Positions 4,201 to 4,717 of a stretch of DNA of 64,000 nucleotides are shown here, one piece after another. Source of the DNA: Escherichia coli (GTDB lineage: Bacteria; Pseudomonadota; Gammaproteobacteria; Enterobacterales; Enterobacteriaceae); NCBI RefSeq assembly GCF_030013595.1, contig NZ_CP122768.1. One strand, 5' to 3'. Position 1 is the first letter of the stretch; each line of letters starts with the position of its first letter. The notes under the pieces are model-generated. The model searched no databases and had not been told where the DNA came from. It saw nothing but the letters and a program-made list of their open reading frames with translations. The translations under genes were made by a program, and so were the position numbers.

Positions 4201-4717
4201 GAGTTCCCCGCGCCAGCGGGGATAAACCGCCGCTCGCGCTCGGACTGAAACCAGGCCTTGCGAGTTCCCCGCGCCAGCGGGGATAAACCGGTCGCCAGAA
4301 CATCACACACGGCGGCGCGCTGGAGTTCCCCGCGCCAGCGGGGATAAACCGGTGCACACGTTGTATTTGTGCTGCCTATGCCAGAGTTCCCCGCGCCAGC
4401 GGGGATAAACCGGGCTTTACGCCCAAAAAGGATTGAATGCAGATGAGTTCCCCGCGCCAGCGGGGATAAACCGGGCTTTACGCCCAAAAAGGATTGAATG
4501 CAGATGAGTTCCCCGCGCCAGCGGGGATAAACCGTGCAGGCGGGGAAAAAACGCCGTTTTGTGGCTGAGTTCCCCGCGCCAGCGGGGATAAACCGGCATT
4601 GCTGTCTCAAATAATTAATCCGGGGAAGAGTTCCCCGCGCCAGCGGGGATAAACCGCGTTTAGCTCCGCAATGCTGGATATCACTGATGAGTTCCCCGCG
4701 TCAGCGGGGATAAACCA
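4201..4717 (+). CRISPR. Type I-E CRISPR array, 9 repeats of 29 bp (gagttccccgcgccagcggggataaaccg) and 8 spacers of 32 bp; terminal repeat degenerate
   Basis: Repeats start at 4201, 4262, 4323, 4384, 4445, 4506, 4567, 4628, 4689 with exact 61-bp periodicity; last repeat has C>T at position 13 and G>A at position 29; spacers 4 and 5 identical. Confidence 0.97.

Follow-up and report, generated by a model that had tools for sequence, protein, structure and literature searches.

The window, the 64,000-nucleotide stretch of Escherichia coli DNA analyzed here (contig NZ_CP122768.1), carries a CRISPR array between queE (ygcF) and ygcE. A repeat search of the window recovers nine copies of a 61-nt unit at 4201–4749, and the array itself consists of nine 29-nt repeats (GAGTTCCCCGCGCCAGCGGGGATAAACCG) alternating with eight 32-nt spacers. 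The nine repeat matches compare with zero expected by chance, and no other I-E repeats are present within the 64-kb window. The repeat and spacer lengths, the site between ygcE and ygcF, a CRISPR2.2 remnant about 0.5 kb away, and the presence of a leader identify the array as CRISPR2.3, the type I-E array of the E. coli CRISPR-II locus, whose published description features the same repeat, 61-nt period, leader, flanking genes, and 0.5-kb gap to CRISPR2.2 (PMC3903273). The homologous stretch in RefSeq relatives carries the annotation “CRISPR”, and the flanks of the array are 99.9–100% identical to E. coli chromosomes. An Rfam scan of 3900–5400 yielded no families at the gathering score, a result that is uninformative on the identity of the array. 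The features discussed below are as follows:

3191–3862, + strand: queE (ygcF), left flank of the CRISPR-II locus, named from the annotation of homologous loci
4040–4200, + strand: AT-rich leader of CRISPR2.3 on the queE/ygcF side, recognized from the sequence
4201–4717, + strand: type I-E CRISPR2.3 array, 9 repeats of 29 nt and 8 spacers of 32 nt with a 61-nt period
4384–4444, + strand: first copy of the duplicated unit (repeat 4384–4412, spacer S4 4413–4444)
4445–4505, + strand: second copy of the duplicated unit (repeat 4445–4473, spacer S4 4474–4505)
4506–4534, + strand: repeat closing the periodic tract
4689–4717, + strand: terminal repeat, GAGTTCCCCGCGTCAGCGGGGATAAACCA (GCGTCAG ... ACCA)
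5190–5249, + strand: CRISPR2.2 remnant, about 0.5 kb 3′ of the array, placed by alignment to relatives
5295–6773, − strand: ygcE (FGGY-family kinase), right flank of the CRISPR-II locus
21525–22860, strand not assigned: IS421 (IS4 family, 1336 bp), between hok and iap

The 220 nt immediately 5′ of the first repeat (3981–4200) are identical in three relatives, one of which is GCA_030347985.1. Because the leader lies on the queE/ygcF side, S1 is the leader-proximal spacer; in the published description, the leader likewise adjoins CRISPR2.3 on the ygcF side, and a degenerate CRISPR2.2 sits between ygcE and ygcF (PMC3903273). The CRISPR2.2 remnant in the window has one 61-nt unit fewer than those of HCP5S3_I2, CP057738.1, and GCA_900450425.1, a deletion common to GCA_900448395.1 that has left a chimeric repeat at 5221–5249 (ATGTTCCCTGCATCAGCGGGGATAACCAT). 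The terminal repeat of the array itself combines the T variant of the penultimate repeat in strain 135 with the ...CCA end of that strain’s last repeat, a composition that fits a chimera from an older repeat-to-repeat deletion of a spacer, Y, which strain 135 still holds. Farther upstream, ygcG (a TPM-domain protein; 2025–2942, − strand) is split into ORFs of 141 and 152 aa; in HCP5S3_I2 and CFSAN018748 its homolog is annotated as a pseudogene interrupted by an internal stop, and in strain 7CC it is intact.

Read from the leader, the spacer order is S1 S2 S3 S4 S4 S6 S7 S8. The units at 4384–4444 and 4445–4505 are identical at 61 of 61 positions, including the 32-nt spacer S4 (GGCTTTACGCCCAAAAAGGATTGAATGCAGAT) at 4413–4444 and 4474–4505. 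The first-pass annotation had described 4384–4505 as a tandem duplication of one repeat-spacer unit in which the fourth and fifth spacers are the same, and its coordinates, spacer sequence, and numbering are all exact. The remaining units share 61–69% identity with the duplicated one, which reflects the common repeat only. The chance that two independently drawn 32-mers match is approximately 4^-32, so the identity of the two S4 copies is not fortuitous. They are exact head-to-tail copies, in register and flanked by identical direct repeats, and they occupy internal positions, 4 and 5 of 8, away from the leader end. Together with the closing repeat they form a tract of perfect periodicity spanning 151 nt (4384–4534; repeat-S4-repeat-S4-repeat). 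Since the repeats in the S4 part of the array are identical, the crossover has no internal marker and can be placed only somewhere within 4384–4534.

Among the seven distinct spacers of the array, S1 (4230–4261) matches a terminase small subunit gene (DUF1441), carried by Stx-converting lambdoid phages and by related plasmids that bear prophages, at 27 of 29 bases. For the remaining distinct spacers, the phage and plasmid collections gave no match.

The first-pass annotation had proposed a comparison with the arrays of related strains. Draft assemblies were reached by using as protein query a spurious 143-aa ORF spanning the array. One protein match, P0051 (91% identity to the 143-aa ORF), is the equivalent ORF of a single-S4 array and led to GCA_900448395.1 (contig UFZA01000002.1), the closest relative found. 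Spurious ORFs through I-E arrays are abundant in public protein collections, with 4,871 matches to the window ORF (4179–4610, − strand) at E ≤ 1e-10; some are named “DUF2825”, and they offer a handle for retrieving related arrays from draft genomes. Further members of the clade were found with the exact YgcE protein and differ from the window by 0–3 SNPs per flank of about 4.7 kb. The spacer content of the arrays compared, from the leader, is as follows:

GCA_900448395.1 (sister): S1 S2 S3 S4 S6 S7 S8
GCA_030347985.1 (same IS421 site): S1 S2 S3 S6 S7 (IS421 in repeat) S8
CP057738.1: S3 S4 S6′ S7 S8
HCP5S3_I2: S3 S4 S6 S7 S8
GCA_900450425.1: S7 S8
CFSAN018748: X S1 S8
Strain 135 (more distant): W S6 S7 S8 Y
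64A:C (more distant): A B C S2 Z S3 S8′

GCA_900448395.1 differs from the window essentially by the 61-nt unit. There are no mismatches between the two in the 4200 bp upstream of the array or across the 9038 bp of iap-IS421-hok-cysH, and the 9.9 kb downstream contain one SNP and two homopolymer-length differences. The three closest genomes (the window, GCA_900448395.1, and GCA_030347985.1) thus have 2, 1, and 0 copies of S4, respectively, and a single S4 is also found in HCP5S3_I2, LCP30S3_I5, and CP057738.1. Only 2 of 5,426 complete RefSeq E. coli genomes contain S4, HCP5S3_I2 and LCP30S3_I5, each of them once, and the S4-S4 arrangement occurs in none of the 5,426. An exact search for S4 in metagenome, genome, and viral contig collections gave no match. 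Exact look-up of the window’s spurious array ORFs (143 aa and 60 aa) finds neither on record in public assemblies, which indicates that no independent assembly carries the S4-S4 allele.

In GCA_030347985.1, a second IS421 copy sits in the CRISPR2.3 repeat that follows S7 (554–1933 of the contig reverse complement), with a target duplication of approximately 13 bp across the spacer-repeat boundary. Strain 7CC was dropped as a comparator; despite a common IS421/iap junction, it carries an unrelated two-spacer array, and its flanks are 50–62 SNPs away. Its divergence at the array and flanks is probably due to recombination.

E. coli cas-E genes have been described only at iap-cysH (PMC3903273). 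In the cas-positive strain 98228, the gene order there is cysH, hok, IS421, cas3, casA-E, cas1, cas2, CRISPR2.1, iap. The alignment of the window to this strain extends as far as the IS and picks up again at iap, leaving out positions 13354–22785 of the 98228 stretch, which hold cas3–cas2 and CRISPR2.1. None of the components of a complete type I-E system (cas3, cse1, cse2, cas7, cas5, cas6e, cas1, cas2, and CRISPR2.1 at cysH-iap) is found within the window. The absence of the cas3–cas2 operon and CRISPR2.1 from the 21200–23000 region of the window makes the CRISPR2.3 array an orphan. Unlike the usual E. coli I-E arrangement, the window therefore has no partner CRISPR-I locus (cas-E and CRISPR2.1), but this is a known configuration: the cas-less cysH-hok-iap arrangement is common to IAI39, CE10, PCN033, HCP5S3_I2, and many others at 99.4–100% identity, and orphan CRISPR2.3 arrays in cas-less E. 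coli have already been described (PMC3903273). Within the clade, we observed the cas-less state in the window, GCA_900448395.1, GCA_030347985.1, and HCP5S3_I2 with its near-identical twin LCP30S3_I5.

IS421 is flanked by a 12-bp target duplication, GGGGTAAAACCC, at 21513–21524 and 22861–22872. GCA_900448395.1, GCA_030347985.1, and strain 7CC carry the same hok-iap insertion, as probably does GCA_021649415.1, where the contig breaks off within the IS; HCP5S3_I2 lacks it. We considered IS421 as the element that deleted the cas operon and rejected it, since the same cas-less junction occurs in HCP5S3_I2, where no IS is present, and the target duplication is clean; the element thus entered an arrangement that was already cas-less. 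The window is otherwise collinear throughout with the cas-less HCP5S3_I2, the exceptions being IS421 and the arrays; the two differ by roughly 25 SNPs across some 62 kb. The cas-less state does not extend to every genome with similar flanks: CFSAN018748 (NZ_CP028192.1, 1574155–1576573) is 100% identical to the window across ygcE-yqcE yet keeps its cas operon, in which cas3 is frameshifted. This combination of a cas operon with window-like flanks implies that the cas and CRISPR-II loci have had separate histories, consistent with recombination.

Where short direct repeats lie in tandem, slipped-strand misalignment or unequal exchange between sister chromatids gives rise to instability of the variable-number tandem repeat (VNTR) type, and rearrangements between close repeats can be RecA-independent; a 29-nt homology just 61 nt away favors RecA-independent slippage. 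The CRISPR2.3 arrays likewise gain and lose whole units between identical 29-nt repeats spaced 61 nt apart in near-identical genomes, and it is from this pattern that the mechanism is read. Other repeat-to-repeat events at the locus include the loss of S1-S2 in HCP5S3_I2 and CP057738.1 and the loss of S4 in GCA_030347985.1. Across the arrays of the window, GCA_900448395.1, GCA_030347985.1, HCP5S3_I2, and CP057738.1, the differences amount to whole-unit gain or loss, IS insertion, and one spacer SNP, and no new spacers are seen among these five genomes, which make up the window subclade. The unit losses, chimeric repeats, and IS insertions at the same locus indicate that units gained and lost through the repeats account for most of the change in the array, in agreement with the first-pass annotation, which had described an array evolving by neutral rearrangement rather than acquisition. 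The neutrality is inferred.

We consider it highly probable that the second S4 copy arose by a tandem, Cas-independent, and very recent duplication, through repeat misalignment or unequal exchange, after the loss of the cas genes and CRISPR2.1. Neighboring identical 29-nt repeats would have misaligned at replication (slipped-strand), or sister chromosomes would have exchanged unequally, and one 61-nt CRISPR2.3 repeat-spacer unit would have been copied in tandem. This event would be very recent, in a lineage already lacking the type I-E cas operon and CRISPR2.1, and, being Cas-independent, it should have no foreseeable effect on immunity. Over the handful of genomes available, the most parsimonious history is that the duplication is derived and was gained once in the window’s lineage. 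The choice of slippage or recombination as the molecular route, which the first-pass annotation had also put forward, is likely on the sequence pattern, and it draws support from the single S4 in relatives, the cas-less junction, the internal position of the copies, and the other repeat-mediated changes.

The close match to GCA_900448395.1 can also be turned around: where the nearest public genome differs essentially by the 61-nt unit alone, the extra unit might be an assembly artefact, the isolate truly having one S4 unit (or three or more). Two intergenic homopolymers of the window, at 8101 and 8361, are shorter than those of its relatives and may hint at consensus errors. They read A7 and T7 in the window versus A8 and T9 in GCA_900448395.1, and the three gap bases that separate the window from most relatives compared (one to four overall) could be either real variation or consensus error. 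Long-read errors, however, are typically homopolymer indels and not exact 61-nt insertions. S3 and S6 anchor the tract uniquely, the S4-repeat-S4 junction should require reads that contain it, and the continuity of the contig through a 1.3-kb IS points to long reads, for which 151 nt would be an easy span. We therefore regard an artefact as improbable. A genuine pair of S4 copies could instead be ancestral, the product of an older slippage, with each single-copy relative having lost one; the mechanism would be the same, and only timing and polarity would differ. Unit deletions are frequent at the locus, and duplicated units are expected to collapse easily (PMC11472070); with the homology now at 90 nt after the duplication, the S4-S4 allele is itself expected to be unstable. 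Such a history nevertheless demands at least two or three independent exact losses, in the GCA_900448395.1, HCP5S3_I2, and CP057738.1 lineages, against a single gain, and is very unlikely.

Duplicate spacers can, in addition, arise when Cas1-Cas2 integrates the same protospacer twice running, a documented but rare class that accounts for 8 of 805 duplicate candidates in a survey with SpacerPlacer (PMC11472070). The assertion in the first-pass annotation that identical adjacent spacers are not produced by normal adaptation is for this reason too absolute as a principle, given re-acquisition at approximately 1% (PMC11472070); for this array it stands, as the context excludes that route. The canonical locus lacks cas1-cas2 in both the window and its sister genomes, and the copies are internal, so the adaptation machinery is excluded in practice. 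Neither cas1-cas2 nor a new unit at the leader end was found in the 64-kb window. With the copies at positions 4 and 5 of 8 and S1–S3 common to single-copy relatives, a double acquisition of S4 would have to be older than those three spacers and to have been lost more than once since. Searches of phages, plasmids, E. coli genomes (at blastn sensitivity), and viral contigs for an S4 protospacer gave no match. Re-acquisition is thus extremely improbable, and the recent, Cas-independent duplication of the unit is the reading we carry forward.

Duplications of this type are established. In E. coli I-E arrays, Kupczok et al. (2015) counted 35 of 746 and 35 of 766 unique spacers as replicated within arrays, or 4.6–4.7% (PMC4524480). 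SpacerPlacer identified the above 805 duplicate candidates among 24,090 spacers (3.3%), of which 86% were simple duplications and 1% reacquisitions, with replication misalignment proposed as the cause (PMC11472070). The S4 pair corresponds to the “duplication” class of that study (Fehrenbach et al. 2024, PMC11472070), being an internal, adjacent, and exact unit that is single in related arrays. Set against the catalogued spacer duplications (PMC4524480, PMC11472070), it shows no difference in kind, and the S4-S4 allele is absent from all other genomes searched. The S4 duplication is thus already known in kind, a real but ordinary array change.

The S4 unit may also be a local hotspot of instability, as its copy number of 2, 1, and 0 in three near-identical genomes could suggest, but we consider this doubtful. 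If it were true, slippage of whole units would alter the orphan I-E arrays of cas-less E. coli at a far higher rate than point mutation does, and some spacer sequence contexts would set the slippage rate, perhaps via secondary structure or the 90-nt homology that follows a duplication.

The biological weight of the event is small, since duplication by repeat misalignment is established and the array has no cas genes to make use of the duplicate. What distinguishes it is a clean and well-polarized Cas-independent duplication for which sister and outgroup arrays are in hand. The CRISPR-II locus of this clade shows VNTR-like behavior, with units gained, units lost, and ISs inserted where the background is approximately one SNP per 10 kb. 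This behavior is relevant to CRISPR-based typing and to the counting of spacers as acquisition events.
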